Shown: piece by piece, positions 4,421 to 21,686 of the stretch
Position numbering within the stretch: the stretch's first letter is position 1
How the letters are laid out: every line of letters begins with the position of its first letter
IMG/VR virus record: IMGVR_UViG_3300043469_000509
DNA: 64,000 bases
Source of the DNA: an uncultured virus (IMG/VR IMGVR_UViG_3300043469_000509)
Taxonomy: Duplodnaviria > Heunggongvirae > Uroviricota > Caudoviricetes > Crassvirales
Reading direction: 5' to 3' (one strand)
The notes under the pieces: model-generated
What the model was told of the DNA's origin: nothing
The model's input: only the letters and a program-made list of their open reading frames with translations
Databases searched by the model: none
Made by a program: the position numbers and the translations under genes

Positions 4421-4840
4421 TTATCCTCCCATTAATGCAAGATCTCTTGCGTTTATAATATCTAAATATTCTGCTAATTCTGTATTAGTTTCATATACTC
4501 CTATAAAATAGTCATCTTCAATTACAGATGTTAATTTAACTACATTATAAAATAGTTCGGGAGTTTTAGTTACAACTTTATCAATTATAAGCAGCAATTC
4601 TTTTTTAGTTATAGCTTCATAATTTCTACCCATATGATAACTATTAGATAACTCTTGATCCAACTCATCTAATTTTCTGTAATAACTTGGAGATATGTAA
4701 TTTACTACAGGTTTTTCGTCATTATCTTCTATAGAAGTTAAAACTTCTTCAATTGTAAAATCAAAAGAAGTTTTAACTATTTTAAAAACATTTACTTTAA
4801 CTTTTTTATCAACTTCTTTTTTTATTGCTTGTACTACCAT
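4421..4840 (-). CDS. hypothetical protein
   Basis: 139 aa ORF in operon context. Confidence 0.6.
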   Translation of the reverse strand: MVVQAIKKEVDKKVKVNVFKIVKTSFDFTIEEVLTSIEDNDEKPVVNYISPSYYRKLDELDQELSNSYHMGRNYEAITKKELLLIIDKVVTKTPELFYNVVKLTSVIEDDYFIGVYETNTELAEYLDIINARDLALMGG

Positions 4841-4842
4841 AA

Positions 4843-6579
4843 TTAATTCATTATTCTAGATCCATGATTATCAATAAGACTATAAGGCTCGTCAAACAAA
4901 GAGTTTTCAAATGTAACAAGATTTTGTTTTTTAGCAGCTTTAGTATCTAAAATATGCTTTACAAAATTATTATAAAACTCAATTAAAGCTACACCATTAT
5001 AATGCTCTTTAACAAAATTATACATTTTATCTGTAGCAAAACCTTTTGTAGACTTCTCTTTATTAATATTTGTTTCAATACTAAATGTAAGGTTTTTAAG
5101 AGTTTTACTTTTATTTAAAGATATATCAGTTCCAAATCTTTCAACTAGCTTCATATAATCTCTGTAAACAGGAATCATAGAATGTTTAGGTCTAATTTTA
5201 AAATTATTACCAATTTGATCATGAGTTTTAATTAAATACTCAGTATAGTCATTATCTGAAATATCAGATTCTCCTAAAATTATACCTCTTAAATGTACAT
5301 TATCTAAAGTTACTGAACCTACAGTAAATTGAGTATTATTAGGAAATATTAAATTACCTCTAGTTTCTTCCTGTATATTAACAAGTGTAAAATGCTTACA
5401 ATTTTCATTTGTTAATGTAATAGGTAAACTAAAATCAGCTACAATAGCATACTTACTATCTAAAGAAGCATTATCTTTAGATGTAACATTAATAACTTTA
5501 TCTAAAGGTCCTAATTTGAGCTTATTATTTTTATTGTATTTATTATTATAATACGCGCTCTTAGAAGAATTGTTATTTAAAGGTATAACTTTAGTTTCTA
5601 TTTTAGGTAGTTTTAATTCATACTCAAAGCTAGAATTAACTAACTTTCTAACTGAAGCTACTTGTAATTCAGTAATAACTTCAATTTCTTCTTCTACCTT
5701 AGTATCAACACTAGTCCTCTCTAGAAAATCATTATATAATCTCTCATCTTCACTTTCAAAGTTATGATTAGTTTGACGATCTAGTAAATTAAAACCTGTA
5801 TTAATACCACAAAAACTAGGACCTTCAGAGTAACCATTGTCATCATCATCATCGCCATCAAAAACATTTAAAAACTTATTAGTATTTAGATTAAAGTCTG
5901 AGCGTCTAGTAGAACTACCTCCTCTATCTTCAATATAACTTTTGTACCCACTATTAGAGAATAAATATCCTTGGTCATCTATAAAATTACCTAGAATAAT
6001 CATATCTCTATCAGGAAACATAAAACAAACTTTCTCTCCTTGTAATGAAGAGCTTAGTGTTGAATTAGTTGATATAAGTGCATGAGGAGCATTTTTTAGA
6101 GCTTGAATTTGTTTATCTGTTCTAAAATAACTTAATCCCCAATTATAAGTATCACTTAAATTCATATCAAAAGCTTCATACTCATTTCCAGAAAATATAC
6201 CGTTATGAGCAAATACACCTGTTTGAACATCGTCATCATCTACAGTTAACTCAGAAACTACTCCAAAGTTGTTTAGAGTACTCTTTTCTCCTAATATATA
6301 TGGATGTTGATTATATATGGTTTTAGAACCGTTTGTACCCCATCTTAAATGGACTAATACTTCATCTTCAGGTTGAATGTCTTGATTTTTTAACCATTTG
6401 TAAAAATCTTCTTTACTATGATTAAAGTGACCTTTATTCATTCTAAGTATATTGGAGGAGCTTTTTCTTACAGCTCCTCCTATACCATCTCTGTTAGTAA
6501 CAATACCAGATTCAATTGCACTAAGCATGAATTTATGGTCATAAGCTACTCCAGAGGGTTTCATCATTAATAAACACAT
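4843..6579 (-). CDS. class II (Ntn) glutamine amidotransferase with long C-terminal extension
   Basis: N-terminal Met-Cys nucleophile, NRDGIG, HLRWGT, HPY, FAHNG, SDT. Confidence 0.88.
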   Translation of the reverse strand: MCLLMMKPSGVAYDHKFMLSAIESGIVTNRDGIGGAVRKSSSNILRMNKGHFNHSKEDFYKWLKNQDIQPEDEVLVHLRWGTNGSKTIYNQHPYILGEKSTLNNFGVVSELTVDDDDVQTGVFAHNGIFSGNEYEAFDMNLSDTYNWGLSYFRTDKQIQALKNAPHALISTNSTLSSSLQGEKVCFMFPDRDMIILGNFIDDQGYLFSNSGYKSYIEDRGGSSTRRSDFNLNTNKFLNVFDGDDDDDNGYSEGPSFCGINTGFNLLDRQTNHNFESEDERLYNDFLERTSVDTKVEEEIEVITELQVASVRKLVNSSFEYELKLPKIETKVIPLNNNSSKSAYYNNKYNKNNKLKLGPLDKVINVTSKDNASLDSKYAIVADFSLPITLTNENCKHFTLVNIQEETRGNLIFPNNTQFTVGSVTLDNVHLRGIILGESDISDNDYTEYLIKTHDQIGNNFKIRPKHSMIPVYRDYMKLVERFGTDISLNKSKTLKNLTFSIETNINKEKSTKGFATDKMYNFVKEHYNGVALIEFYNNFVKHILDTKAAKKQNLVTFENSLFDEPYSLIDNHGSRIMN

Positions 6580-8393
6580 TATATTAGTTGTTTAAGTTTT
6601 AGATTATCATTAACTTCATTTTCATTTTTAATATCCTCTGTTTCTACATTTTCAAATAAAGCTGTTCTCATATCAATAAATTCATTAATAATTCTATATG
6701 ATTTAGGATATACCTTATTCATAATATTTTTTAATGTTAGAGGTAATACTTCACCTTTTAGAGTTACTGTATTACTCATTATATCACTATGTGAATTTTC
6801 AGCAAAGTTTACTAATGCCATACAAATCTTTAGCCAATTTTTGATTTTGGTAAAATTAGTACTAGCATTAAAACATCTAAATTCAATTGTATAACTTGGA
6901 GGATTAGTCATCCTTGTATTAAATAAAGCTGGAATAAAATTAGCCCAACAATATCTAATATTAGTTTGATCATATTGTACTTTAGCTCCTTTAGGGTGAT
7001 TCTTAGTTTTATTTAATTTATCACTTGGAGGAGAGTCAGCGGCTTTAGTAAAAAGTTCAGTATAGTAGTTATCTACTCTAATTTTCATATCCATAATGGT
7101 AGTACAACCATCAAAATTAAAATCTAAATTAGGTAATCTTCTACAATACTTATTTTCTCTTCTACTTTTAGGTAACATATTAAAGATATCATCTTCTATA
7201 TGTTTTAAGAGCTTATATAACATTACTAGATTAGTATTGTTAAAGTCAGCGGAACCTATATGAGTGTGAATACCACATGTGTGATTCACCTCACCTTTAT
7301 TAGCCAACTCATTACAAAGACTTTGTAAATGAGCCAATCCTTGATCACCTTTTAAGATACCTGTTATAATCTCAGGGCCGTATTTCTCACGTCTAGAGTT
7401 TGTAATACTACCATCTTTCTCAACCATGATATTAAAATCTTGCAGCAGCTTATTATTAAAAGAGCAGTCAGCCATCTCTATCTCTACACCGAAAGTATAC
7501 TTTAAGCCTTCAGTTATTAGATGAGTTGGAGAATCTAAACCCCATCGATAATTAAACTCATTATCATTTGGTTGAAATTTCTTTAGGTTTTTAAACTCAG
7601 GAAAATAATACCCACTTGGATATGCTCGATAACCATCACTCATAATTTGAGATTTTAAGATTATTTGTCCAGATCTAGGGCCTATAACAAACTTGTCAGG
7701 AAAGCTTTTTAGTAATTCCTCACCATTTAACAAATAAATTATTTCAGGGCTGTAAGCCTTACCTAGTATCTTATAGTTACAAGTTAATAAACTTTTTACT
7801 GACTCTTTATTAGCATACTTTGCAGTTGTTTGAAAATAAGGGGCATTATCAGTTAATTTAACTTCATAACAAGCTGCGCGATAGTGAGTAACATAAAGTT
7901 TGTCAGTAATAGCACATTTATAATGAGGTATACTCATTATCTCACTAGTAAGAACCCACGTACCATTATCCTCATTATTATCTAATAAGATTTTAGTACA
8001 CATAGATTTAACTACAAGTTTTTTCTTGACGATAATCATATCTTTTATATACCCTGAATTACCATACGAATCTACTATCAACTTATCTTCTGGAGATTCA
8101 TATATTCTAGGACTATTTTTATGTATGTATTTTTTAATATCTTTTTTGTAGTAAAATGATTTTATTTGACTAGTAGGTATTATAGATCTTCCACTTTTAG
8201 CATTAAGTGCTATTATATGATTTGAAGTTGTAATATCTTCTATCTCAAATTTTAAGGGTTTCCCAGTATCCTCATTTACAGCATTATCAAGTTCAATAAT
8301 ATCATTAACAAAATATTTTTCTTTACCTCTTTGTAGGTATTTAAATCCGTTAACTTCTTTTAAGCTACAAGGGATTCTTTCTTTGTTTTCCAT
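6579..8393 (-). CDS. putative amidoligase (COOH-NH2 ligase / Amidoligase_2-like)
   Basis: TFGVEIE, DGS, EIITGIL, CGIHTHIG, RRENKYC, TIEFR motifs in the C-terminal half. Confidence 0.85.
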   Translation of the reverse strand: MENKERIPCSLKEVNGFKYLQRGKEKYFVNDIIELDNAVNEDTGKPLKFEIEDITTSNHIIALNAKSGRSIIPTSQIKSFYYKKDIKKYIHKNSPRIYESPEDKLIVDSYGNSGYIKDMIIVKKKLVVKSMCTKILLDNNEDNGTWVLTSEIMSIPHYKCAITDKLYVTHYRAACYEVKLTDNAPYFQTTAKYANKESVKSLLTCNYKILGKAYSPEIIYLLNGEELLKSFPDKFVIGPRSGQIILKSQIMSDGYRAYPSGYYFPEFKNLKKFQPNDNEFNYRWGLDSPTHLITEGLKYTFGVEIEMADCSFNNKLLQDFNIMVEKDGSITNSRREKYGPEIITGILKGDQGLAHLQSLCNELANKGEVNHTCGIHTHIGSADFNNTNLVMLYKLLKHIEDDIFNMLPKSRRENKYCRRLPNLDFNFDGCTTIMDMKIRVDNYYTELFTKAADSPPSDKLNKTKNHPKGAKVQYDQTNIRYCWANFIPALFNTRMTNPPSYTIEFRCFNASTNFTKIKNWLKICMALVNFAENSHSDIMSNTVTLKGEVLPLTLKNIMNKVYPKSYRIINEFIDMRTALFENVETEDIKNENEVNDNLKLKQLI

Positions 8394-9937
8394 AATTCAA
8401 CAGTTTTAGCATAAATTTCACATATTTTTTCTTTCATTGAATCAAATTCACCTTGTAAAGCGCGCATTGTTCCTAACTCTATTTCACCTTCATTTTCTTC
8501 TAATAACCCATATAAGTCATCAATAGAAATCATATTATCTTCACATAGATCAAATATTTCAGAAACTGTTTTATTTTCATCAGTAGCTTTAATAATATCA
8601 TCTACTTCTATGTTTTTAAGTAAACTGTTTTCTACCATAAATTGAGCTAAATAGGATTCTTCTACTTTACTATAAGGTTCTGAGTCAATACTAGTATTAT
8701 GACTAGTTGTATTTTCAGGTAATAAAATAATATGTTTAGAATTATCTAGTACATTAGTAAGAGAACGCTCACTAATAATACAAGCTCTAGCATATTCTTT
8801 CTTTATTTCATAATCTAACCCATCTACTAAACTAGTAGCACAAATACAAAGAGCTCCATTAATAGTACTTTCTCTTGGTTTTATATTTACTACATCACCC
8901 TTGAAAAATACAAATTCAGTAGGACTAGCTGTTTTATGAATATCTGTCATTATAACAACTTTAGTATTACTTGTTAACGGATTAATAGGCTCAACTTTTT
9001 GAACATAATAAAACTGTGCAAATGGTATTGTAATAGATACACCAGCAGTATTCTCCACAACTAGTTTTGATTCATGAGCCTTAATTTCTCTTAATAAAAA
9101 CCAATCATTGATTTTATAAGGAATAGGATCACTTCCTAAACTTGCTCTATCTGTTTGTATCCAGCTATTTAAATACTTAGCCCAATAACCAGGAGCAGTG
9201 CCGCTACCAGCATACAAATTAGTACTGTAATTTGAGTGGTTAACAACTTTGGTTTTAACGGGTCTACTGGGTATAGTTACCTCATTAAGTATTCCCCCTT
9301 CGAATATAGTATATAATGTATTTGTACTAAACTCTTCAATGTCTATACACTCAATAGCTTCTAGACTTTCTTTTAAGCTACTAATATACATACCTTCTTC
9401 ACTCATACCATAAAACAAAGGTCTTTGATTATTCAATCTAAAAGCTAGTAAAAAACTATTTTCTTGACCCTTTTTTAATTTAATATTTTTATCAGCTACC
9501 AATAAACTAGCTGTACCATCAATCTCACTAAATATTCTAGCTCCAAAATTACTATCCATAATTTTATGCAGTAACTCTGTATCAGTACCTGGATTAGTAG
9601 TATTATACTTTGCAGCTAATGCTGTTGTATTATCTAAAGTACCATTATGAGCTAATACACAATTATCACCTGCAAAAGGATGAGCTGAAGATACAAAAGT
9701 TTTATAAGCTGAACCAGCTCTAACATGCCCTATTAAAGAGCAATCAGGTACTATCTTAGTAAAATCTTTAGTTAGAAATTTAGCAGCTACATCTACTGAT
9801 TTAACTACACCTGAAGAAGGAGTCCAAAAACCAGTAGCATCTTTACCACGATCTTGATTATACATAAATAAGATTTTAACCTTATTAACATCAAATTTTT
9901 GCCCCTTATGACCACTAAAACCTATTAGTCCACACAT
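8360..9937 (-). CDS. second class II glutamine amidotransferase
   Basis: MCGLIG, RGKDATG, GHVRAG, HPF, AHNGTL, TDTE, RPL. Confidence 0.9.
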   Translation of the reverse strand: MCGLIGFSGHKGQKFDVNKVKILFMYNQDRGKDATGFWTPSSGVVKSVDVAAKFLTKDFTKIVPDCSLIGHVRAGSAYKTFVSSAHPFAGDNCVLAHNGTLDNTTALAAKYNTTNPGTDTELLHKIMDSNFGARIFSEIDGTASLLVADKNIKLKKGQENSFLLAFRLNNQRPLFYGMSEEGMYISSLKESLEAIECIDIEEFSTNTLYTIFEGGILNEVTIPSRPVKTKVVNHSNYSTNLYAGSGTAPGYWAKYLNSWIQTDRASLGSDPIPYKINDWFLLREIKAHESKLVVENTAGVSITIPFAQFYYVQKVEPINPLTSNTKVVIMTDIHKTASPTEFVFFKGDVVNIKPRESTINGALCICATSLVDGLDYEIKKEYARACIISERSLTNVLDNSKHIILLPENTTSHNTSIDSEPYSKVEESYLAQFMVENSLLKNIEVDDIIKATDENKTVSEIFDLCEDNMISIDDLYGLLEENEGEIELGTMRALQGEFDSMKEKICEIYAKTVELWKTKKESLVA

Positions 9938-9948
9938 ATATTATTATT

Positions 9949-10860
9949 TTAGATAGCTTCTTCAACAGAAGCTGATTTTTTAATAGATTTATTTTCTTGT
10001 TTTTCAATAGTATAGTTGATATTATACTTATCACATAGGTATTTAGCTACATCAGAGTCATTGTTATTAACACAATTAATGATAGCTAAGCAGTCATCCA
10101 TATGCTCATCCATAACAAACTTCTCGTTATTAATCTTATCAATAGCTGCAAATGTATTATCAAACACAAATTTAGTGTGCTCTTTACTTTGAAACCAATT
10201 GATACCTAAAGTACGTAACTCAGCTGTAACACTACCAATACGATGCTCACCTGCTTTACCATAAAGTTTTCTACGTAAAGCTCCATTAGGATTCATTATA
10301 ATACTAGGTACAGTTAAATACAAATCTAATACTCTTAATAAGTTTAGATCTGTTTCATAGGTTCTATCTTTATATGAAACATGAAGATGCTTACCTATAG
10401 AGCGTAGATTACTATCAGTAGCTTTAGGAGGCTCATTCATTTCTAGATTCCAGAAATTAAAACTTGGTGAGCATCCAAATAATCTAGCCTCATCAGTATC
10501 TAGCTCCTGATCAGAGAAACTAATAGCATCAGCACTATCATCATTTAAAACCATCAAATCTTTACCTTCTAACTCTTTATTTATTTTATCTAGTATCCAC
10601 TCACAATCATTATACATCTTAATGTATGAATTTGTAGGTGGTAAAGTAAGCTCTAAAGCTACATTATCTTCTTGTACACCATAACCAGCTTTAAGAAATC
10701 TAGGAAGGTCTTTCGACCCTCCTATTAATCCTACAGCACTTTTATGTTCTCCAGTGTTCTTATCTACTATAAAGAATTCTGGGTCACTACCTAATCTAAC
10801 ATTAGTAATTTCTTTTAAATTACTTGGATTTAGTTTTTCTACTGTTATTTTATTACTCAT
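9949..10860 (-). CDS. phiEco32-type COOH-NH2 ligase type 2
   Basis: LGSDPEFF, IGGSK, QEDNVALE, FGCSPSFN, RSIGKHLHV, RRKLYGKAGEHR, ELRTL. Confidence 0.88.
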   Translation of the reverse strand: MSNKITVEKLNPSNLKEITNVRLGSDPEFFIVDKNTGEHKSAVGLIGGSKDLPRFLKAGYGVQEDNVALELTLPPTNSYIKMYNDCEWILDKINKELEGKDLMVLNDDSADAISFSDQELDTDEARLFGCSPSFNFWNLEMNEPPKATDSNLRSIGKHLHVSYKDRTYETDLNLLRVLDLYLTVPSIIMNPNGALRRKLYGKAGEHRIGSVTAELRTLGINWFQSKEHTKFVFDNTFAAIDKINNEKFVMDEHMDDCLAIINCVNNNDSDVAKYLCDKYNINYTIEKQENKSIKKSASVEEAI

Positions 10861-10861
10861 T

Positions 10862-11629
10862 TTAGGCTAATATTGATTTTTCTAACTCGGTTAATTTTTG
10901 TAATCTAGGACTTCTAGCTATTAAACTATCTACTAAAATATCAGAAAAGTCGCAAGAACTTGCTTTTTCTGGATGAAATTGTACACCAATAACAGGAAGT
11001 TTACTATGTGCAAAACCTTCTAAGATGTTATGAACACCATTCATTCTATCCCAAGAAGGAGCTTTCTCCCATAATAAAGGTATTAGATCAGCATTAGCTT
11101 CTAGAGCTTGTTTGCTAACTCCTTGATGATGAAAACTGTTTACACTAATAGAAGGACTTGTACAAGAAGGGTGAATAAATTCTTGCATATACTTATTGTT
11201 TACTACACATTTATTGACTAATTTATCACCATCTCCATCACTAGAATTTCCGTGATATGGTGTTATGTTTTGAATAATAGGTATACCAAAGTATATTGCT
11301 AATTGTTGATATCCTAAACAAATACCGAATACAGGAGTTCCTGCTTCAATATATTTAGGTAAATTATTCTTAAAAAAGTAATCCTTAAAAGGGTCACTTG
11401 AGCCATTCATAAAGCCTGGTACAGCATTATAATGAGTAGTTTGAACATCTTGCCCACCTGGTAATACAACTAAGTCTAGATCTTCTCTAATGTCTTCGTT
11501 TGGTGTAAGCATTTCTACTTGACCAAACTTATTAAAGTATTCAAGATAAGTCTTTTGTACTCCGAATGAATTTTCACCTAGGCTCCAACAAGGGATACCT
11601 ATTACTGGTTTCTTAGTTTTATTTGACAT
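10862..11629 (-). CDS. class I glutamine amidotransferase / peptidase C26 (gamma-glutamyl hydrolase-like)
   Basis: LPGGQDV, GICLGYQ nucleophile elbow, VNSFHHQ, GVQFHPE catalytic His-Glu. Confidence 0.9.
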   Translation of the reverse strand: MSNKTKKPVIGIPCWSLGENSFGVQKTYLEYFNKFGQVEMLTPNEDIREDLDLVVLPGGQDVQTTHYNAVPGFMNGSSDPFKDYFFKNNLPKYIEAGTPVFGICLGYQQLAIYFGIPIIQNITPYHGNSSDGDGDKLVNKCVVNNKYMQEFIHPSCTSPSISVNSFHHQGVSKQALEANADLIPLLWEKAPSWDRMNGVHNILEGFAHSKLPVIGVQFHPEKASSCDFSDILVDSLIARSPRLQKLTELEKSILA

Positions 11630-11634
11630 TTTAA

Positions 11635-12444
11635 TTATTGTAAATTTGTTTTTAAAACACTAATTTTATTCCCATACTCATCAATAGAATTTAAATCTTT
11701 TTGAGCTGATTCTTTTGTAGCATCATAATACCAAACTCTTTTACTAATTGTAGAACATTTAGAAGTTCTAAAACCACTTGGCATACTTATAGGTAATTGA
11801 TTTAATAAAATATCATATACTTGACTTAAAGTACAAGTTGAATAATAGTATCTACAAATCATAAAGATATCTCCAACACTACGTCTTTTACCTGCTGCTG
11901 TCTGAACATCTCTATTATCTACAAAGATAGTATCTTTATTTGTATTATAATCAGTAAAGAAAGCCCTCAAGAAATCTGCTAATGTTTGAGTTTTTCTATT
12001 TTTCAATAAACCTGGTAATCTAATTGGTCTAGGATTAGCAGTAATAATTTTATTTTGAATAGCTAAAAAGAAATTAGCTTTATCTTCATCACTTAAAGTT
12101 GGTTCAGGAATAGGTTCTACATATTTTACAGCATTATTTAAGAATATACTTTCATGGTGTGCAAAAAGATATAAAACTACTAACCCTTTCTGTATACTTA
12201 TATTTACAACTTTTTTACTAATATCTCCAACAATTACCATACTAGTGCCTACTTCAAATTCTTCACCACCAGTTCTTCTAACAGCTTTAATTTCGTAAGT
12301 AGAGCTGCACATAAAATCCATTAGATTTTTAGTATCATCTAAATTATTAGAATTAACGTATAATTCTTGATATGAAGGATTTACATGATATTCTATATTT
12401 GAGTTTCTTGACTTAAATTTTGTAATTAAATAGTTTGTAGACAT
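11635..12444 (-). CDS. hypothetical protein within ligase cluster
   Basis: 269 aa ORF overlapping its upstream neighbour. Confidence 0.6.
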   Translation of the reverse strand: MSTNYLITKFKSRNSNIEYHVNPSYQELYVNSNNLDDTKNLMDFMCSSTYEIKAVRRTGGEEFEVGTSMVIVGDISKKVVNISIQKGLVVLYLFAHHESIFLNNAVKYVEPIPEPTLSDEDKANFFLAIQNKIITANPRPIRLPGLLKNRKTQTLADFLRAFFTDYNTNKDTIFVDNRDVQTAAGKRRSVGDIFMICRYYYSTCTLSQVYDILLNQLPISMPSGFRTSKCSTISKRVWYYDATKESAQKDLNSIDEYGNKISVLKTNLQ

Positions 12445-13385
12445 AATGTTTGTTTTTTAGTTACTTTTTTATTTTTAATAATTAATTTTTCTATATTAGC
12501 CCATAGTTCTTTTTTAGTAGTACTATTAACTAATTTATTGTATTGTTTTTCGTAATCTTCTTTAGTAAATTCTTCGCCTAAAGTAGTAGGAGTTTTTAAT
12601 AAAGCTTTAGTTAACTCACTTTGATTTTTAAAAATCTCTCTATAATTAGTAACATTTAACTTAGGATATAAACGCTGAACTAAAATAGCAGGAGTTTTTT
12701 CACTTAAAGACTTTCTTATAGGTTGAAATATTGAATTACCATGAGCTATTGAATAACCAGTTTCTACATCAGTTATAGCTTGATAAGGAGTTAATCTATA
12801 GGCTACTTGTAATAGTAAGAATAAATCTTTATCTGGAAATAATTCTGCTAATTCTATAAATCTTACAGGAACATGTGAGCAAAAATTAACGTGTAGATTT
12901 CTAATTGCTTGCCAAGTAAACTTTAAAAAAGCTTCTTCATTCCAATCTATCTTAGAATAATCTATAATTATAGATAATTTAGTAGTTGTAATTGATGATA
13001 TTTCACAAACAAATCCTATTTTTTGTAATAATCTAATATATAATTCTATATATTCTAATTTAGAATATGTACCTTTAAAAGGATTAACAAAATCAGTTAG
13101 GCTAATACTCATTTCAGCATAACATTCATTGAAGTTATATTTAACATCATCTAAATTTTTAAAAAATAATCCGAATTTTAGTTGATATTCACCATTAAAA
13201 TATACATTAGAACTTTTTTGAAAATCTACAAATATAGCTTGAGCACAGCCCTTAACAACTTCAACAAGTACTTTTTTAGGTTCTTCTTTATCTAAATGGC
13301 TATATACTTTAACTTTAGCTCTTTCATAATCAAAGAGTGCAGCTGGTTTTAATTGTCTTAGTATAGGTTTAACTTGTTCTTCCAT
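12426..13385 (-). CDS. hypothetical protein within ligase cluster
   Basis: 319 aa ORF overlapping both neighbours. Confidence 0.6.
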   Translation of the reverse strand: MEEQVKPILRQLKPAALFDYERAKVKVYSHLDKEEPKKVLVEVVKGCAQAIFVDFQKSSNVYFNGEYQLKFGLFFKNLDDVKYNFNECYAEMSISLTDFVNPFKGTYSKLEYIELYIRLLQKIGFVCEISSITTTKLSIIIDYSKIDWNEEAFLKFTWQAIRNLHVNFCSHVPVRFIELAELFPDKDLFLLLQVAYRLTPYQAITDVETGYSIAHGNSIFQPIRKSLSEKTPAILVQRLYPKLNVTNYREIFKNQSELTKALLKTPTTLGEEFTKEDYEKQYNKLVNSTTKKELWANIEKLIIKNKKVTKKQTLCLQTI

Positions 13386-14247
13386 TTTTACTATTAATTA
13401 TTTTAGGTATTTCTATTAAATACTTTTGTAATGTGATATCACCAAAACTTGGTGCGCTAGCTGATTCTACAATTAACCAATCTACATCACCTTTTTTATT
13501 AGGTAAAGATACTATAACATCAAATGCGCAAATATCTAATTCTAAAGCTTGTTGAGCTTTAACACAATCTGCTACAATATCATCCCAATTGTTAGGCTTC
13601 TTAAAGCTTGGATTACTTTCTAAAGCCCAAGTAACTACATCATCATGATACTGCCAAGTATTTTCTGGAGCATCACTTTTTAGTAACTTCCTACAAGCAT
13701 AGAAACAACCAAACTTACTGATATGTAATCTATACTCTCTACCAAGTGGTTGAAATTTCTCAAAGATATAATTACTTAATGTTTTACCTTGAATCCAAGA
13801 TTGCAATGCTTGTTGATTGTCTAACTTAGTATTACCAACACCTCTACTACCAAAATGAGATTTAGCTATGATGGGGAAAGGTAAATCACTAATACCTCTA
13901 TCAGCTTCACCTAACGCTATTCCTTTTTCAATCCATCCTCTGCCTCCAATAGAATCATATTTTACAAACCATCTTGCAGTTTTAACACCTGCATTTGTAA
14001 AGCATTGTTTCATCAATAACTTACTAGCACTATTCTTAATACCTTGTACACTATTAACCTCTGTTCTAACTTTACCATGATTTAGTACAGTTGTACTACC
14101 TAACCTTACAACGCTTCTACCTTTACATAACTGTAATTGTTTTCTAAGTGGTGCATGACTAGGATGTCTAGTTAATACTAAAGGTCTAAAAAATGTAAAA
14201 GGCTTTTTAGCTTGTTTTAAGCTACTTTTTTTCTTTTTGAGTATCAT
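13369..14247 (-). CDS. ATP-grasp peptide ligase (RimK/YheCD-like)
   Basis: N...SASKLLMK, FPIIAK..GSRGVG, IFEKF, EYRLH, ICAFDV, IVESASAPS. Confidence 0.85.
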   Translation of the reverse strand: MILKKKKSSLKQAKKPFTFFRPLVLTRHPSHAPLRKQLQLCKGRSVVRLGSTTVLNHGKVRTEVNSVQGIKNSASKLLMKQCFTNAGVKTARWFVKYDSIGGRGWIEKGIALGEADRGISDLPFPIIAKSHFGSRGVGNTKLDNQQALQSWIQGKTLSNYIFEKFQPLGREYRLHISKFGCFYACRKLLKSDAPENTWQYHDDVVTWALESNPSFKKPNNWDDIVADCVKAQQALELDICAFDVIVSLPNKKGDVDWLIVESASAPSFGDITLQKYLIEIPKIINSKNGRTS

Positions 14248-14981
14248 ATTGCTTTTTCTACTTTTAATGACGGGTAATCTAATTTATAGGATACTATTCC
14301 TAAGTTATGAGTACTTGTATCACCTTTTAACCGACTAAAATCTTGAGGTAATGGCCCATATTTAATAATATCCTTTAATTTAGGTAAAGAATTTCTAATT
14401 AAGCTGATATCAGGTTGATAACATTTATTATCTTCTAAAAATTTAAATGGATCTACACTTGTATCATTATAAGTTTGACCTGCTCTTAATAGTAAACTAT
14501 ATAGACTTATCATATAAGTGCTTTCAGTCCATATTAAAGGTACTTCAACCAAATATAAGTTATCTTCTATTTCACTAATTATTGTATTAGATTTAATATC
14601 AATATTAAGCAGTTCCTCAAAATAATTAATAAAGTATTCTAAATGTTTGTGATATTTAGATAAGTTTTCTTTTTCCTCTATAAATTCTTTCTCATTATAA
14701 TTATGCTTATATTTATATGGACATATAGCTATTGCTAAATATGCCCATTTTGTATTATCAAATAGCCCTTGTTTATCTTTTAAATGTAATCCGTGAGCGC
14801 TGATACTTAAACCAGTTCTTTCGTTATATATCACATCATTTAGATAATCTTTACAAGGGCTAATTGGTTGTATTGTTTCATAATCATCTCCATTAGTATT
14901 ATTACAAAAAGCAAATCCCATATTGTTAGATCTACCTTCTGATAAAATATTTCTGTCTTGGTTATTTATAATTTTTATCAT
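14244..14981 (-). CDS. putative accessory protein of phage amidoligase clusters
   Basis: FAF...PCKDYLND and W....MISLYSLLLR motifs; coupled to the ATP-grasp gene by an ATGA overlap. Confidence 0.5.
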   Translation of the reverse strand: MIKIINNQDRNILSEGRSNNMGFAFCNNTNGDDYETIQPISPCKDYLNDVIYNERTGLSISAHGLHLKDKQGLFDNTKWAYLAIAICPYKYKHNYNEKEFIEEKENLSKYHKHLEYFINYFEELLNIDIKSNTIISEIEDNLYLVEVPLIWTESTYMISLYSLLLRAGQTYNDTSVDPFKFLEDNKCYQPDISLIRNSLPKLKDIIKYGPLPQDFSRLKGDTSTHNLGIVSYKLDYPSLKVEKAI

Positions 14982-15479: not shown

Positions 15480-16070
15480 TTATTTTATCCATTCTTTTGT
15501 TATTGTAGTATCTACCTTCATTTGAACTTTAGATACATATTTATTACCTGCGTTTATCATTATATCTTCCATTTCTTTTGCAAATTGAATAGCTAGATCT
15601 TCTCTAACTTCTACATCAATAGCATCATGAACTGTACATATAAGATAAGCTACATCTTCTTTATAAGTATTATTATAAGTAATAATTAACTCTCTAACAC
15701 CTATTAAAGCTTCTTTAGTAATATCAGCACCTGAACCTTGAATTGGACTGTTCATAGAATTTCTTTGAACTTGTCCTTCAGTTTGAAGTATCTGTTTCCA
15801 TAGAGTTTTACTCTCAGGAGAACCTTTAACAACATACTTAGCTTCTTCTCTTAACTTAGGTATAATTTCTATTTCAGGATAAAATCTTTTCCTCTTACAA
15901 GGAGCAAATGTTTCACTGTAACCTCTTGTTACACCTAGTTTAGCTTGAGTATCTAACCACTTATTTAGTTTAGGGAAAGCTATTCCATATTCTTTAAACA
16001 ATGTTTCAGCTTCTTCTATACTAATTTGTAAAGTATCAGCTAGTTTGTTAGGGCCCATACCATACGGTTT
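15480..16070 (-). CDS. polA: DNA polymerase family A, exon 2
   Basis: Begins KPYGMG, completing motif B; NSPIQGSGAD; motif C TVHDAI. Confidence 0.92.
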   Translation of the reverse strand, partial: KPYGMGPNKLADTLQISIEEAETLFKEYGIAFPKLNKWLDTQAKLGVTRGYSETFAPCKRKRFYPEIEIIPKLREEAKYVVKGSPESKTLWKQILQTEGQVQRNSMNSPIQGSGADITKEALIGVRELIITYNNTYKEDVAYLICTVHDAIDVEVREDLAIQFAKEMEDIMINAGNKYVSKVQMKVDTTITKEWIK

Positions 16071-16610
16071 CACTAACCCCTAATTTTCATTAGGGAGTGG
16101 ACTATACCTTTGCATATTTTCCATTTATATCTCTAGTTTCATGATGTCTTTGATGACATTTTTTACATAATATTTCAAAATTAGAAATATCATTGTTAGT
16201 TCTATCATGATCTATATGATGTGCTACTAGATTTTCTATATTATTACACCTATTACAAATATTAGGGAGTAATTTCATAGCTTTTTTACAAGCTACTTTT
16301 GCAGAAGAATCTTTTATATCTTTTGTTTGATTATTACCTGAGCCTACCCCAGGTTTTTGTATAAATTTCTTATTAATTCTGTATTTTAAAGAATTAAAAG
16401 CATTTCTACATTTAATAGAACAAAATTTAGCACTTTTATATTTGGTTTGTGGTACTTCGTTACCACATTTAATACACACCCCACGTCTAGTCTCTACACA
16501 CGCCTTATTAGAACTGTCTAATATGCTTGGCTCGGTATTATCATCAGCATTACCTGTTAAGACTTCACCGACTTTGAAGGGTTTTGTTTCGGCAAACTTA
16601 GTTTTCATAT
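16071..16610 (-). mobile_element. group I self-splicing intron (540 nt) in polA
   Basis: 5' splice site follows UUCGGU, which pairs with intron GCCGAA (U-G wobble, P1). Core elements are AAAGUCGGUGAA, AAUACCGAGCCAAGC, GUAGAGACUAGAC and AAGGUAUAGUCC, with P7 GACUA/UAGUC. P9 hairpin is CUCCCUAAU-GAAA-AUUAGGGG and the terminal G is at 16071. Splicing restores in-frame INFG|KPYG. Confidence 0.93.
16102..16608 (-). CDS. intron-encoded HNH homing endonuclease
   Basis: CxxC...FCSIKC zinc finger and CNRC...HHIDHDRTNN...N..ILCKKCHQRHH HNH motif. Confidence 0.88.
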   Translation of the reverse strand: MKTKFAETKPFKVGEVLTGNADDNTEPSILDSSNKACVETRRGVCIKCGNEVPQTKYKSAKFCSIKCRNAFNSLKYRINKKFIQKPGVGSGNNQTKDIKDSSAKVACKKAMKLLPNICNRCNNIENLVAHHIDHDRTNNDISNFEILCKKCHQRHHETRDINGKYAKV

Positions 16611-17933
16611 ACCGAAATTAATAGTTTTAGCTTTGTTTCTAAGGTCTTTATCAGCTTTAGTTATAGTCTTTTTAAACATTAGAGAACCTGCATAACAATG
16701 CAAATCTTCACCTCTGTTTAATACATCTATAAAACCTTCTTCACCAGAACCATCAGCCATTAAGTTTAACTCTTGACCACTATAGTCAATAGATACCCAT
16801 AAATAACCTGGTCTAGCTTCAAAACAATTTCTAAAGATATTTTTAGCTGGAATGTTTTGTAAGTTAGGAGCATTATCATCTTTAGAACCAGAGCTAACAC
16901 GGCCAGTATTAAGCACTTGCCAGAAACTAGTATGAACTCTATTAGTATGAGGATTAATATAATCTAAGAAACCTTCTCCATAAGTAGATATTATTTTAGC
17001 TTTCTCTCTGTAATCTTGTAGTACTTTAAAGAATTCATGCTTATCAGCTAATTTAGTTAACTCTCTGTCATTTGTACTATCAATGTCATATCCTAGAGTA
17101 TTACAAATATCTTTAATTTGCAATGGTGAAGCATAATTTATCTTTAGTATTCTCTCAGGTTCATCAAATAAATTGCTCTGAATATATTTAGGTACAAACT
17201 TTTGTAATAGAGGTTCATCAGTTATTACTTTATCTAAGTGAATTTCTAAATCATCTAACTCTTGTTTAAAAGTACTAGTATTACTTAACCACTTTTCCCT
17301 ATTTAAAGTCATACCATTATATTCTATATCTGCTAAAGATTTAAATACATCATTTTCTAGGTTAACACAATATTCTAAATCATACTTTCGTACTCTCTCA
17401 TATTGTAGATTAGCTATTCTATGTAAATATTTAACATCTCTAGCAGCGTATAAAATTTGGTCAGTGTTAAAAGGTTCTGCATTTAATCTAAAGAAATCAG
17501 CTCTTGTACTTTTATCTAAAGTTATGTCTAGATATCTTTGTGCAAGCTTATCTAAACCATAACCCCACTTATCATAACCACAATATAGGACACATTCTGT
17601 AAGCATAGTATCATAACAATTATTTAATGTTATTCCTGCATGCTTTAAGAACTTATAATCAAATTTAAGATTATGGCCTATTATTATTTTACTCTCTATG
17701 AGGTCTTTAAAGTTTAAGATATTTATTTTACGTATATCAATAACCCATTGATTATCTGAATCACCTAATTGTAAAGATAATAAAGCTTTGCTATGAGCAT
17801 CTTTACCTTTAGTCTCAGTATCTAGTTGAATACTCTTGTGGTTACTAAAATAGCTTAAACAATGTTCTACAGTACTTTCTTTATACTCATCATCTTCAAA
17901 TAACCTATCCCAACAACCTATTGTGTATATCAT
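16611..17933 (-). CDS. polA: DNA polymerase family A, exon 1 (3'-5' exonuclease and polymerase motif A)
   Basis: LDTET, GHNLKFD, YAARD exonuclease motifs; TGRVSS, PNLQNIP, DYSGQEL, DLH, RNKAKTINFG. Confidence 0.93.
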
Positions 17934-20155: not shown

Positions 20156-21013
20156 TTAAAATATATATCTTATTGTATTCCAAGGGATTATGTCATTGTG
20201 TAAGTTAACCCATTCTTTAATATACTTAGATTTAATATTATGTTTGTACCTAATATTATCTCCACCATATTGAGATATTTTAGATTCTTGAATATCTGGA
20301 TTCCACAACAACTCTTCTCCTTGTAAATTGTTACTTAAATTGTAATAATGTTTATTCTCATTATGAGTAAGAAATATAACTTCACATTTAACTACATCTT
20401 TATAATTAACATAGTCATTAACCATGTGAAATAACTCTTCGTATTCTTGTAACCAATTATCATAAACAATTACAGGACTAAAGTTAATATGTACATCATA
20501 ACCTGCATCTATAAAAGCATCAATAGCTTTAATTCTATCTATTATAGGGCTAGTGTTTGGTTCTAGCTTATCTGAATAGATTTGAGGCATTAAACTAAAT
20601 CTAATCCTTATTTTACTTTCAGGATTAAATACAGTTAAATCAGGATTTACATATTTAGTAGCAAAACTACCCATTGCTATTGGATGCTCTCTAAAAAACT
20701 CAAATATTCTTTGCCAATCATGATATTTAGCATGCAGAGCAAAGTCTTCATTACAAGATATATCATAAGTAACATAATCAGCATGAGTTTGATTAGGTTT
20801 ATCTACTACACTAAAAAATGAATGATTATTAATTTCCGTTAAGATATCACCTGTATTTTTAGATATGTCTAATCCAACTGATTTATGTCTTTTCATATAA
20901 CAATAAGAACAGTTATATAAACAGCCATAACCAAAGCTAGGACTAATAAAATCTGTACTACGACCACTTGGCCGTATTAACATAGACTTTCTATTGATTT
21001 TCTTTATCACCAT
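20156..21013 (-). CDS. spore photoproduct lyase-like radical SAM protein
   Basis: GCLYNCSYCY radical SAM motif, FATK, RIRFSL, E..T..I.DRI.A, GY.VH.NFSP. Likely start is the ATG at 21013 (MVIKK) overlapping the thyX end; the ORF track start is 21052. Confidence 0.82.
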   Translation of the reverse strand: MVIKKINRKSMLIRPSGRSTDFISPSFGYGCLYNCSYCYMKRHKSVGLDISKNTGDILTEINNHSFFSVVDKPNQTHADYVTYDISCNEDFALHAKYHDWQRIFEFFREHPIAMGSFATKYVNPDLTVFNPESKIRIRFSLMPQIYSDKLEPNTSPIIDRIKAIDAFIDAGYDVHINFSPVIVYDNWLQEYEELFHMVNDYVNYKDVVKCEVIFLTHNENKHYYNLSNNLQGEELLWNPDIQESKISQYGGDNIRYKHNIKSKYIKEWVNLHNDIIPWNTIRYIF

Positions 21014-21686
21014 TAAATGCGTTAATAGTATGTTTAAATGGATTACCCTCAATGTTTTGAACTAACTCTAACATTTGTTGTGCAATTTCTCTAATCTCTA
21101 ATTGTGCATGCTCACTATTCCTAAGCTTTAGGAAGTTAGCAAAGCTACGCATATTAAACATTACATCAGCTTGTATTTGAGAGTTATAAGTCTTAAAGAA
21201 CCTAGCAGATTCTTTAGCTCTTTTTCTACCAAGAATAGGAGTTAAGTCTTCAAGACATTGATGATAAAGGTTATTACCTAATTCCGTATAATCATCTAAT
21301 ATAGTTGTCCAATCACACCATTTAGGTTCATAACAATTCCCATCATAATCAAAATATATTCGTTTAGATATTTTTTTACCTTTCCAATCATCAGGTAAAT
21401 AATACTTATCTTCCTTTAACTCTTTATACCTAGCTGATTCTGCATTAATAGAAGCTATTCTATGCTTTAATAGATGTATATGTGAAGCTATGTCACAGTT
21501 AATTAAGAAATGCACTGTAGCCTTCTCAAATGGTGTTTCATGACCATTCTTCCATAACATATCTATCAATGCTGGTATTCTAGTTTTTTTATCATCTGTT
21601 AATTCTCTAGATGTACTTGTCCATGCTGAACAAGCTATTACTTCATCACTACCATAATAACCTAATAGTTCTACTGTATTGTTCAT
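20991..21686 (-). CDS. thyX: flavin-dependent thymidylate synthase
   Basis: GHETPFE, KHRIASINAESARY (ThyX motif), ESAR, N.RS..NFLKLR..HAQLEIR. Confidence 0.92.
   Translation of the reverse strand: MNNTVELLGYYGSDEVIACSAWTSTSRELTDDKKTRIPALIDMLWKNGHETPFEKATVHFLINCDIASHIHLLKHRIASINAESARYKELKEDKYYLPDDWKGKKISKRIYFDYDGNCYEPKWCDWTTILDDYTELGNNLYHQCLEDLTPILGRKRAKESARFFKTYNSQIQADVMFNMRSFANFLKLRNSEHAQLEIREIAQQMLELVQNIEGNPFKHTINAFNGDKENQ

Follow-up and report, generated by a model that had tools for sequence, protein, structure and literature searches.

What might a crAss-like phage make with a run of ligases and glutamine amidotransferases set among its replication genes, and is such a run peculiar to it? 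The question is raised by positions 4843-14981 of the window (the whole stretch of DNA that was analysed, 64,000 nucleotides from an uncultured virus), which in the ORF listing are filled exactly by nine consecutive open reading frames (ORFs) on the minus strand:

14244-14981, minus strand: X0, orphan, 245 aa
13369-14247, minus strand: RimK-like ATP-grasp ligase (predicted), 292 aa
12426-13385, minus strand: X1, orphan, 319 aa
11635-12444, minus strand: X2, orphan, 269 aa
10862-11629, minus strand: class I glutamine amidotransferase / peptidase C26-type hydrolase (predicted), 255 aa
9949-10860, minus strand: phiEco32-type COOH-NH2 ligase type 2 (GS/GCS2-like; predicted), 303 aa
8360-9937, minus strand: GAT2a, canonical class II (Ntn) glutamine amidotransferase (predicted), 525 aa
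6579-8393, minus strand: AmL, Amidoligase_2 (GS-like) enzyme (predicted), 604 aa
4843-6579, minus strand: GAT2b, divergent class II (Ntn) amidotransferase-like protein (putative), 578 aa

By their coordinates, neighboring ORFs overlap by 4, 17, 19, 34 or 1 nt or are separated by 5, 1 or 11 nt. The cluster sits between a polA gene split in two pieces (15480-16073 and 16605-17933) and, on the other flank, a DnaB-like helicase gene (1644-2696), as identified with Pfam. Judging from its terminase, portal and capsid PHROGs, which are crAss-like, and from a TerL that shares no more than 37% identity with any of 151 crAss-type records, this is a distant crAss-like phage. An earlier note, made from the letters alone, had described a tightly packed nine-gene cluster of these families between the polA and helicase genes of a crAss-like phage, and that description holds. 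The GC content of the cluster (0.26-0.31) equals that of its flanks, which argues against a recent insertion. The cluster forms a co-directional block among replication genes and is probably co-transcribed, although scans of the region for promoters and terminators found no more sites than in shuffled sequence. A ThyX gene (an ordinary thymidylate synthase family match, Pfam 5.5e-35) and an SPL-family radical SAM gene lie 5-6 kb away, and downstream of the cluster a small ORF (4421-4840) ends in Gly-Gly in the window, while its homologues end in MEG, YEQ, YDY and WYE.

Ligases and amidotransferases

The ATP-grasp protein matches PHROG 2599 (2e-21) and, below the cut-off, NCBIfam rimK_fam (8e-08). 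Its profile (A4, 14 sequences) matches an alpha-L-glutamate ligase (7qyr, 5.4e-11) and RimK (5zct, 2.5e-9) in the PDB, as well as cyanophycin synthetase and D-Ala-D-Ala ligase, and E171, R173, H175, K187, D243 and E261 are invariant; on these matches it is classed as a RimK-like ATP-grasp amino-acid or peptide ligase. The COOH-NH2 ligase is recognized by Pfam PF14395 (6.4e-08) and PHROG 3815 (5.2e-53), and D26, E28, H158, H160, E214 and R216 are invariant among 15 sequences. AmL matches PF12224 (3e-20) over residues 323-421 of its 604 and PHROG 2443 (6.3e-29); a region of about 290 aa without an assigned fold precedes its Amidoligase_2 catalytic domain, and its invariant residues are E304, E306, H376, H378, E504 and R506. 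Sequence searches against solved structures returned no relative of either the COOH-NH2 ligase or AmL.

Both putative Ntn enzymes begin with Met-Cys in their translations. GAT2a matches GATase_6 (3.6e-10) and GATase_7 (5.1e-07) in Pfam, and its profile (A6) matches PurF (2e-12) and GlmS N-domains in the PDB over the N-terminal part only; its Ntn domain covers roughly residues 1-230 (invariant C2, R73, N98-G99 and D119) and is followed by a lineage-specific C-terminal region of about 290 aa without an assigned fold. GAT2b has no direct match by sequence in Pfam, PHROG or PDB, and its assignment is indirect. Its N-domain (residues 1-225 or so, ahead of a C-terminal region of about 350 aa without an assigned fold) aligns with that of GAT2a (hhalign probability 82%, E 1e-5), and two relatives consisting of the N-domain alone (241 and 307 aa) match GATase_4 at 2.1e-3 and 2.7e-4, below the Pfam cut-off. 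Among 15 homologues R79, N90, H92-P93, H125-N126-G127 and S142-D143 are invariant and C2 is kept in 90% of rows or more; in all loci that extend upstream of GAT2b, the amidoligase gene comes immediately before it. The two class II enzymes with Met-Cys starts of the earlier note are thus recovered, GAT2b as a putative divergent class II (Ntn) amidotransferase-like protein. Both enzymes retain the Arg, Asn-Gly and Asp positions by which PurF and GlmS hold the glutamyl moiety.

The class I protein matches Peptidase_C26 (3.5e-19) and GATase (5.3e-16) in Pfam, and its translation shows GICLG and HPE motifs, which presumably hold its catalytic residues. In the PDB it matches TrpG (4.3e-07) and also the CarA small chain; its NCBIfam matches are all below cut-off, with PabA/TrpG-type best, followed by gamma-glutamyl-CDP-amidate hydrolase (7.4e-06) and PuuD (1.9e-04).

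The three orphan proteins

X0, X1 and X2 have no convincing match in Pfam, PHROG or NCBIfam, where only noise-level rows appeared (for X0, CedB in NCBIfam at 0.004 and 15.8 bits against a cut-off of 700; for X2, DUF1360 at 0.11 and 12.9 bits). The X0 family comprises at least 150 clusters, and the AlphaFold2 model of X0 (40 sequences) reached a pLDDT of 95.1 and a pTM of 0.92. Foldseek found no match to this model in the PDB at E <= 0.001. With VIA-align (48,161 chains), the best 14 rows were all Dop, GshF/GCL (gamma-glutamylcysteine ligase), PafA, glutamine synthetase (GS) I/III, YbdK, GmaS or GS homologues, ahead of all other folds, with 147-177 of the 245 residues aligned at rmsd 4.1-6.1 and Z 6.2-4.3, the best of which is lower than the 7-8 that VIA-align typically reports as best Z for models without clear matches; the next row was an unrelated fold at Z 3.7. 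X0 is far smaller than these enzymes, and its first long strand reads GFAFC, with no acidic residue, whereas the COOH-NH2 ligase and AmL have DPE or EIE in the strand that is presumably equivalent. X0 lies in or near the cassette in 15/15 loci checked. It is probably a minimal protein of the glutamine-synthetase fold (carboxylate-amine ligase superfamily), as its model suggests.

X1 shows a similar but weaker enrichment. Among 1.84 billion representatives only 10 matched it at E <= 0.001; X1 is confined to this crAss-like group, in which it is present in 8/8 loci reaching its position. Its AlphaFold2 model (pLDDT 78.5, pTM 0.83) had no significant Foldseek match; in VIA-align, 13 of the first 26 rows had a GS or guanidino-kinase fold (McsB, Dop, PafA, GCL, arginine kinase and others), at a Z of only 4.3-2.7 that likewise starts below the typical best value and with other folds interspersed. 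X1 is possibly another, very divergent GS-fold protein. Sequence profiles link neither X0 nor X1 to the canonical ligases. For X2 the only leads came from the ESM Atlas (0.85); it was found only in the window and in two other contigs (L003 and L013), is missing between X1 and the C26 gene in L014-L018, and on this distribution is a variable member of the cluster. The three ligases that the earlier note counted are all there, but the count is probably too low: since X0 and X1 resemble the GS fold in their models, the cassette may hold four GS-fold proteins plus the ATP-grasp enzyme.

The cassette in other phages

A phage amidoligase cassette was reportedly predicted from genomes by Iyer, Abhiman, Burroughs and Aravind in 2009 (Mol Biosyst 5:1636). 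In its phiEco32, LUZ24-PaP3-UFV-P2 and PA11-TC6 types it combines a COOH-NH2_lig (PF14395) and an Amidoligase_2 (PF12224) enzyme with a class II amidotransferase and a RimK-like ATP-grasp protein. These four core families occur together in 19/25 sources, the window included (the other six being cut by a contig or record end), and phiEco32, UFV-P2, 7-11, CVT22, TC6, IME234, RHph_N3_19, cr108_1 and Lbo-JY46 all have them, so that both the phiEco32-like neighborhood proposed from the letters and its conservation in relatives are borne out. Like the phiEco32/LUZ24-type cassettes, that of the window has all four families with intact motifs, co-directional and tightly linked, beside primase/helicase and DNA polymerase genes; 8/10 annotated phage records fetched have an annotated primase/helicase or DNA polymerase gene within a few kb, and 7-11 and LAh_8 have none annotated in the stretch fetched.

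The crAss version departs from these cassettes in several ways. A GGACT/GGCT (gamma-glutamyl cyclotransferase) gene accompanies the cassette in 9/25 sources (L033 and L034 have one too) but is missing from all nine crAss-type loci; a gp85-like protein of about 200 aa is present in 8/8 annotated loci outside the crAss group, but in none of the crAss-type loci and none of the contigs L019-L024. What the crAss version adds is a C26/class I enzyme (common to CVT22, TC6, IME234, RHph_N3_19 and Lbo-JY46), a second, divergent Ntn enzyme, the orphans X0, X1 and X2, and long extra regions on the amidoligase and class II amidotransferase proteins. The order X0, ATP-grasp, X1, (X2), C26, ligase, GAT2a, AmL, GAT2b recurs in at least seven other crAss-like contigs (L003 and L013-L018), in which GAT2b is 34-77% identical. 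Rhizobium phage RHph_N3_19 and contigs L020-L024 likewise carry two class II enzymes and a C26 enzyme, and Leptolyngbya phage Lbo-JY46 has one class II and two class I/C26 enzymes. To call the window's version "unusually complete", as the earlier note did, is therefore an overstatement, given this recurrence and the lack of GGCT and the gp85-like protein. By family content the cassette is the known phiEco32/LUZ24-type, and its crAss-lineage gene order is not unique to the window.

The closest annotated parallel is cr108_1 (MT774385; Crassvirales, Steigviridae), in which gp_22626-gp_22632 follow the window's order: ATP-grasp, two unassigned ORFs, class I amidotransferase, COOH-NH2 ligase, class II amidotransferase, amidoligase. 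Its COOH-NH2 ligase is the best match of the window's ligase in the phage collection (36.6% identity), and AmL is 26% identical to a 486-aa "hypothetical protein," as the amidoligase is annotated there. The two unassigned ORFs, of 329 and 300 aa, are mutual paralogues, with an hhalign probability against X1 of 14% (E 0.002). X0 and GAT2b are missing from cr108_1, and its cassette adjoins primase and UDG genes, that of the window polA.

Possible products of the cassette

From the genes present, their conserved catalytic motifs, the synteny and the resemblance of the X0 model to the GS fold, we infer a crAss-lineage, enlarged form of the phiEco32/LUZ24-type amidoligase cassette that would build and trim an amide-linked product, a reading that we hold with slightly more belief than doubt. 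The COOH-NH2 ligase and AmL would turn a carboxylate into an acyl-phosphate at the expense of ATP and then join it to an amine, and the RimK-like enzyme would extend a free carboxylate by at least one amino acid, most likely glutamate. The Ntn pair would either pass ammonia from glutamine to a ligase, so that a carboxylate is amidated, or hydrolyze gamma-glutamyl amides, and the class I/C26 enzyme would do one of the same two jobs; all of these could be plain glutaminases instead of gamma-glutamyl hydrolases, activities between which sequence does not discriminate. X0, and probably X1, would be GS-fold proteins without the usual acidic active-site strand; as non-canonical partners, either subunits that hold the substrate or Dop-like amidases, they would stand in for the gp85-like protein and GGCT of the classical cassette. 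Acting jointly inside the infected cell, the enzymes would assemble and trim a cytoplasmic product derived from glutamine or a gamma-glutamyl group, at best guess a small molecule or short peptide conjugate rather than DNA. The GGCT of classical cassettes is the strongest pointer to gamma-glutamyl amides, yet it is missing from the crAss-type loci. The product had been called unknown, and we likewise found no functional study of the cassette in the openly accessible literature.

Other targets have to be weighed against this. Protein tagging has models in RimK, which acts on ribosomal protein S6, and in PafA, which works with Pup, a tag that Dop removes; here a protein of the host or the phage would receive glutamate or a short peptide from the ligases, with the Ntn, C26 and X0 proteins preparing or removing the tag. 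RimK and alpha-L-glutamate ligases are the nearest relatives of the ATP-grasp enzyme, the best structural matches of X0 include Dop and PafA (Z 6.2 and 6.0), which X1 matches at Z 4.1 and 4.0, and Burroughs et al. (2015; PMC4431377) make the case that host proteins may be modified by peptide ligases of phages. Even so, we consider tagging unlikely: the cluster has no conserved candidate tag or target gene (the Gly-Gly end of ORF 4421-4840 is not kept in homologues), Dop and PafA are not separable from GCL and GS among the X0 matches because the Z values lie within 1, and X0 lacks the acidic pair that the two canonical ligases of the cassette have in that strand. Amidation or extension of cytoplasmic precursors of peptidoglycan or another envelope component, changing the surface and excluding superinfecting phage, has a bacterial parallel in the ligase and glutaminase pair MurT/GatD, which amidates peptidoglycan precursors, and the ATP-grasp profile does match D-Ala-D-Ala ligases. 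This is also the proposal of Iyer et al. (2009) as paraphrased in PMC10580990, but it seems improbable, since the amidoligase and amidotransferase pair occurs in viruses of hosts with very different envelopes (Poseidoniales archaea, according to PMC11706807; a mycobacteriophage, as cited in PMC10580990), and the cassette holds no Mur-ligase, transpeptidase or membrane protein and lies among replication genes rather than among those for lysis or late functions. The reversible glutamyl tagging for exclusion or anti-defense that the earlier note put forward is itself largely the 2009 speculation as PMC10580990 and PMC11706807 paraphrase it.

A third target would be DNA, with glutamate, glutamine or an amine placed on a modified base or nucleotide to shield phage DNA from host nucleases. 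According to Lee et al. (2021; PMC8989533), some viral contigs have amidoligase and amidotransferase genes next to those for thymidine hypermodification (5-HMUDK/aGPT-Pplase), and a DNA target therefore has to be kept in view; the polymerase or primase/helicase genes near the cassette in 8/10 annotated records and the window's ThyX and radical SAM genes point the same way. We nevertheless find it rather improbable, as Pfam shows no DNA-base kinase, glycosylase-like aGPT-Pplase, hydroxymethylase or TET/JBP enzyme among the ORFs of the minus-strand arm, and ThyX belongs to the ordinary family. That the genes are unrelated auxiliary metabolic genes, merely co-located in a dense early region and sharing no pathway, would fit the uninformative promoter and terminator scans, and close packing is weak evidence for a shared pathway because the whole minus-strand arm is dense; it is hard to credit when the four families co-occur in 19/25 sources from very different phage groups, with their order shuffled and their linkage kept.

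The preferred reading, a cassette that builds and trims an amide-linked product, has analogues in pathways that add and remove gamma-glutamyl groups: PuuA/PuuD (putrescine), GmaS with N-methylglutamate synthase, EgtA/EgtC (ergothioneine) and BtrJ/BtrG (butirosin). There, a GS-fold or ATP-grasp ligase has as its partner an enzyme of the C26, Ntn or GGCT type, by which the gamma-glutamyl group is later taken off or passed on, and by analogy the enzyme types of the cassette would match this pairing. The individual similarities (PuuD at 1.9e-04; for X0, the GmaS structure at Z 4.9) are far below family thresholds, and the phage cassette has no gene for an oxidase, a PLP enzyme or a carrier protein from which the substrate could be told.

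What this analysis adds to the known cassette is thus a confidently modeled fold for X0 with GS-like matches, a weaker likeness of the same kind for X1, and the linkage of X0 to the amidoligase cassette.

Gene content and setting of the cluster

The earlier note had described a tight cluster between polA and the helicase of a crAss-like phage, and both the ORF listing and the family matches confirm it: positions 4843-14981 are fully occupied by nine successive minus-strand ORFs, six of which are assignable to known families, one of them putatively. By their coordinates the ORFs either overlap (by 4, 17, 19, 34, and 1 nt) or leave very short gaps (5, 1, and 11 nt), and the GC content (0.26-0.31) is equal within the cluster and in its flanks. 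Promoter and terminator scans gave counts at or under the shuffled expectation, so that it is only the packing of the ORFs that suggests co-transcription.

Genes of the cluster and flanking replication genes
16605-17933 and 15480-16073, minus: family A DNA polymerase in two ORFs, upstream of the cluster
14244-14981, minus: orphan X0 (245 aa)
13369-14247, minus: RimK-like ATP-grasp ligase (PHROG 2599, 2e-21; NCBIfam rimK_fam, 8e-08, under cut-off)
12426-13385, minus: orphan X1 (319 aa)
11635-12444, minus: orphan X2 (269 aa)
10862-11629, minus: class I/C26 enzyme (Peptidase_C26, 3.5e-19)
9949-10860, minus: COOH-NH2 ligase type 2 (PF14395, 6.4e-08, 32.6 bits against a 25-bit cut-off; PHROG 3815, 5.2e-53)
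8360-9937, minus: GAT2a, class II amidotransferase domain with a Met-Cys start (MCG) (GATase_6, 3.6e-10, 40.4 bits against a cut-off of 27)
6579-8393, minus: AmL, Amidoligase_2 in the C-terminal half (PF12224, 3e-20, 73.6 bits against a cut-off of 22)
4843-6579, minus: GAT2b, Met-Cys start, putatively class II by indirect results
1644-2696: DnaB-like helicase, downstream of the cluster

Downstream genes also encode a RecT-like protein and a primase zinc ribbon. The cluster, between polA and the DnaB-like helicase, is on the replication arm; the terminase, portal, and capsid genes make up the opposite arm, where the crAss-type terminase, portal, and major head protein match PHROGs at E values of 1e-128, 2e-126, and 5e-87, respectively. 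Identity of the terminase to 151 crAss-type records of GenBank phages does not exceed 37%, and the phage therefore belongs to a distant crAss-like lineage. At the DNA level, megablast matched the cluster as a whole to no GenBank phage.

Several other features of the window were recorded. The first polymerase piece (16605-17933) carries the exonuclease and Pfam profile positions 31-217 and the second (15480-16073) carries positions 219-380, with a 168-aa ORF between them (16102-16608) that matches HNH_3 weakly (E 0.0078). The gene seems to have been split by a homing endonuclease, a situation also annotated in UFV-P2 and LUZ24. At 20156-21686 (minus strand), a radical SAM gene of the spore-photoproduct-lyase family (TIGR03886, 2.3e-91, under cut-off) overlaps the end of ThyX (PF02511, 5.5e-35), a pairing that is unusual for a phage replication arm. 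Between the two divergent phage arms, the intergenic zone holds a full-length match to the Hatchet ribozyme (29973-30124, minus strand; Rfam RF02678) that covers all 133 model positions and scores 79.6 bits (gathering score 51; E 8.5e-15). An 87-nt element at 24513-24599 (minus strand) matches the Rfam tRNA model at 42.3 bits (gathering score 29) with no call by ARAGORN; it could be a tRNA-like element or else a tRNA whose arm is long or which carries an insert.

The three ligases, the class II enzyme GAT2a, and the C26 enzyme named in the earlier note were all assigned by PHROG, Pfam, or profile matches. The ATP-grasp protein as a single sequence falls under the Pfam and NCBIfam cut-offs; a profile of 14 sequences finds structures of alpha-L-glutamate ligase and of RimK (5e-11 to 3e-9), as well as cyanophycin synthetase and D-Ala-D-Ala ligase. 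The COOH-NH2 ligase has six invariant residues among 15 sequences (D26, E28, H158, H160, E214, and R216), and AmL, whose gene lies 1.6 kb away, has an invariant set too (E304, E306, H376, H378, E504, and R506), with about 290 residues lying N-terminal to the Amidoligase_2 domain. PDB sequence-profile searches with these two ligases gave no meaningful matches. The GAT2a profile matches PurF at 2e-12, with C2, R73, N98-G99, and D119 invariant and about 290 lineage-specific residues following the domain, and the translated C26 enzyme shows GICLG and HPE motifs. When the extra regions of GAT2a, AmL, and GAT2b were compared for a common targeting domain, no similarity was detectable.

The claim of two Met-Cys class II enzymes held directly, by Pfam, for GAT2a; for GAT2b the Met-Cys start and the conserved positions stood, and the protein had no direct match in Pfam, PHROGs, or the PDB, nor its profile in Pfam or the PDB. 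Among 15 GAT2b sequences, C2 is present in at least 90% of rows, and R79, N126-G127, and D143 are invariant; the Arg, Asn-Gly, and Asp positions we take to be binders of the glutamyl moiety, by their roles in PurF and GlmS. GATase_4 matched two of the 15 family members (best 0.066) and, still under cut-off, short relatives in other phages that consist of the N-domain only (2.7e-4 and 2.1e-3), and hhalign aligned the N-domains of GAT2b and GAT2a with a probability of 82% (E 1e-5). Because of the conserved positions, the alignment to GAT2a, and the GATase_4 matches of the short relatives, we accept GAT2b as a putative, divergent Ntn amidotransferase-like domain.

The cassette in other phages

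A phage amidoligase cassette was reportedly predicted by comparative genomics in 2009. The cluster is a member of this known cassette, and its accessory set is what sets the variant apart. The phiEco32-type neighborhood recognized in the earlier note is present in all of its core: a COOH-NH2 ligase, an Amidoligase_2 protein, a class II enzyme with an N-terminal Cys, and a RimK-like ATP-grasp ligase, located in the early/replication arm of a tailed phage. The crAss-type accessory set differs from the classical one, however, in being without the GGCT (GGACT/AIG2) and the gp85-like protein and in having the C26 enzyme, the second Ntn enzyme, X0, and X1; a GGCT-profile scan, which for the window covered the first 23 kb, found no match there and none in the other crAss-type loci. 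The crAss-like phage cr108_1, in which the cassette is partly annotated, keeps the window order but lacks X0 and GAT2b; its two orphan ORFs are mutual paralogues. Among GenBank phages, 309 records match the COOH-NH2 ligase, mostly those of Pseudomonas and Escherichia phages, of which an organism tally can name at most 3 as “uncultured,” compared with 57 such records among those matching the terminase; among the crAss-like phages described, the cassette is therefore uncommon.

Synteny was surveyed in ten annotated phage stretches together with IMG/VR loci gathered with X1, GAT2b, and X0 as queries, all scanned with profiles built for this analysis. The genes do co-occur across relatives: the four core families are found together in 19 of the 25 first sources (window included), and each of the remaining six is truncated at a contig or record end. 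C26/class I enzymes occur in 18 of the 25; GGCT, in 9 of the 25 and in no crAss-type locus, is therefore a frequent rather than universal member. In all eight annotated phages that are not crAss-like, the gene next after the COOH-NH2 ligase encodes a gp85-like protein (about 200 aa), which is absent from the crAss-type loci and from L019-L024. The complete order of the window is repeated in L003 and L013 and, minus X2 (absent in five of eight related loci), in L016-L018, while L014 and L015 follow it from X1 onward, the contig start cutting the rest.

Counts for GAT2b and X0 are biased because loci were retrieved with those queries (L011-L024 via GAT2b, L026-L034 via X0). GAT2b, full-length or as the N-domain only, immediately follows the amidoligase gene in every locus that reaches upstream of it. 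The 15 loci checked for X0 all have it within or near the cassette: flanked by, or next to, the COOH-NH2 ligase and C26 genes (L022, L024, L032, and L033), beside C26 (L031), or at the cassette end (Leptolyngbya phage Lbo-JY46), with a weak match 8 kb from the cassette in L020/L021 and the C26 gene 4.6 kb away in L034. The most frequent neighbors of X0 are the genes for the C26 enzyme and the COOH-NH2 ligase. Eight of the ten annotated records have an annotated primase/helicase or DNA polymerase gene within a few kb of the cassette; the stretches fetched for 7-11 and LAh_8 had no such replication gene.

Individual loci showed peculiarities of their own. In L020 (6439-10029), a distant relative, an ORF for a LAGLIDADG endonuclease (PF14528, 5.3e-13) and a 572-aa ORF stand between the class II amidotransferase and a shortened amidoligase of 225 aa, which suggests that a homing endonuclease invaded the cassette. 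The C26 gene of the crAss-like contig L016 (4602-4934) spans only 110 aa, with a gap of 700 nt after it, as against 251 aa in the near-identical L017 and L018, and may be either a broken gene or an assembly error. Two phages have, upstream of the cassette, genes annotated as PRPP synthetase and nicotinamide/nicotinate phosphoribosyltransferase, immediately so in Lbo-JY46 (L025, 1-3175) and at about 5 kb in Salmonella phage 7-11 (L008, 993-3556); this may be a coincidence of early regions. In the window, the last cassette gene is directly followed by a small conserved ORF (4421-4840, minus strand) with homologues in L003, L011, L013, L014, L016, and L017. Its product ends in Gly-Gly, and the idea of a Gly-Gly-ended tag was dropped because the C-terminus is not conserved, the tails of its relatives being aromatic or acidic (MEG, YEQ, YDY, and WYE).

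The orphan proteins X0, X1, and X2

Searches of Pfam, PHROGs, and NCBIfam with the three orphans returned noise-level rows and no convincing match, and PDB sequence-profile searches with X0, X1, and GAT2b gave no meaningful matches. The structure checks proposed in the earlier note were informative in part: the X0 model is confident and glutamine synthetase (GS) folds lead its alignments, although Foldseek found no match for it in the PDB and the Z scores reach only 6.2 for X0 and 4.3 for X1. X0 belongs to a family of at least 150 sequence clusters, and its AlphaFold2 model, from a 40-sequence alignment, has a pLDDT of 95.1 and a pTM of 0.92. In an exhaustive VIA-align comparison with 48,161 chains, all of the top 14 rows came from one superfamily, the carboxylate-amine ligase/GS fold (Z 6.2-4.3; 147-177 of 245 residues aligned), ahead of the first unrelated row at Z 3.7; they include Dop, PafA, the GCL half of GshF, E. 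coli GCL, type III and type I glutamine synthetases, YbdK, Francisella GshA, GmaS, 1-naphthylamine GS, and a GS homologue. Fourteen successive rows from one small superfamily are hard to get by chance; all values nevertheless lie below the caution line of the method (Z = 8), which makes the GS fold of X0 probable rather than proven.

The cassette's own ligases have an acidic pair (DPE or EIE), for metal and ATP binding, on the first strand, whereas the first long strand of X0 (residues 20-28, NMGFAFCNN), which we take to be equivalent, has no acidic residue, and their HxH and ExR motifs are likewise missing from X0. Its invariant residues are others (L13, E15, C43, K44, D45, Y46, G64, S159, R166, and G228), and on both grounds the model is read as that of a putative non-canonical or non-catalytic GS-fold protein. 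A BFVD search with the model found one uncharacterized phage protein at 1.3e-8; the rows for GAP52 K4F9T7 (E 0.13) and a 300-aa protein of cr108_1 (E 0.76) were too weak to use, and the ESM Atlas returned nothing for X0.

The X1 family is narrow: 1.84 billion proteins yielded only 10 representatives. Its model is fair (pLDDT 78.5, pTM 0.83). GS or guanidino-kinase folds (McsB, Dop, PafA, GCLs, arginine kinases, and GS) make up 13 of its first 26 VIA-align rows; with a best Z of only 4.3 and other folds interleaved, this enrichment is no more than suggestive of a GS fold. Sequence profiles detected no relation of X0 or X1 to the canonical cassette ligases. The ESM Atlas leads for X2 (0.85 level; primase and helix-bundle clusters) were not usable. 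BLASTP and hhalign comparisons with the positionally equivalent ORFs of cr108_1, phiEco32, UFV-P2, LAh_8, 7-11, TC6, and RHph_N3_19 gave nothing for X0 and, for X1 and X2, a single weak row (X1 against the cr108_1 ORF pair, hhalign probability 14%).

Possible chemistry and targets

From the enzyme types in the cluster we infer a multi-step, ATP-driven amide-bond pathway centered on glutamine and glutamate. The two canonical GS-fold ligases and the RimK-like ATP-grasp ligase would form amide bonds via acyl-phosphates, and the two Ntn enzymes and the class I/C26 enzyme would either feed glutamine ammonia to the ligases or hydrolyse gamma-glutamyl amides; the frequent GGCT of other versions points to gamma-glutamyl intermediates. 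PuuA/PuuD, GmaS, EgtA/EgtC, and BtrJ/BtrG are known gamma-glutamyl protect-and-release pathways, and the proposed logic of the cassette resembles theirs. A small molecule or a short peptide conjugate is the favored target.

Searches of the open-access literature brought up no experiment on any version of the cassette, and papers that mention it (PMC10580990 and PMC11706807 among them) only repeat suggestions made in 2009. Modification of DNA or a nucleotide remains a rival to the small-molecule or peptide target, in that Lee et al. found amidoligase and amidotransferase genes beside 5-HMUDK/aGPT-Pplase genes elsewhere (PMC8989533); against it, no gene for a 5-hmU kinase, an aGPT-Pplase-like protein, a hydroxymethylase, or TET/JBP was detected among the window ORFs scanned, and the thymidine hypermodification pair (5-HMUDK and aGPT-Pplase) had no Pfam match in ORFs at 2-33615, although Pfam may not model both families. 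Modification of an envelope precursor likewise remains, but an amidoligase and amidotransferase pair is described in archaeal viruses (PMC11706807) and mycobacterial viruses (PMC10580990).

The tagging of proteins remains as well. A more novel reading, in which X0 (with its invariant Cys-Lys-Asp-Tyr) and X1 would be two further, non-canonical GS-fold enzymes and the cassette a pupylation-like system of conjugation and deconjugation, we consider improbable. It is hardly more than a long shot that four GS-fold proteins, the ATP-grasp ligase, and three cysteine amidohydrolases would form a self-contained analogue of PafA/Dop, and we would give little credence to a glutamyl-linked tag being written and erased on host or phage macromolecules during replication.

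What this analysis newly adds is the probable GS fold of X0 together with the constant cassette linkage of that protein; X1 contributes a weaker hint, and GAT2b is tied at the profile level to class II amidotransferases. The gain is incremental; the nine-gene set is nonetheless a compact group of defined proteins for reconstitution, with a testable idea of which are catalysts and which helpers. At least one widespread orphan family, that of X0, is suggested to be a stripped-down GS-fold protein, and the crAss-type variant indicates that the four core enzymes tolerate a swap of accessory proteins, with GGCT and the gp85-like protein out and the C26 enzyme, the second Ntn enzyme, X0, and X1 in.
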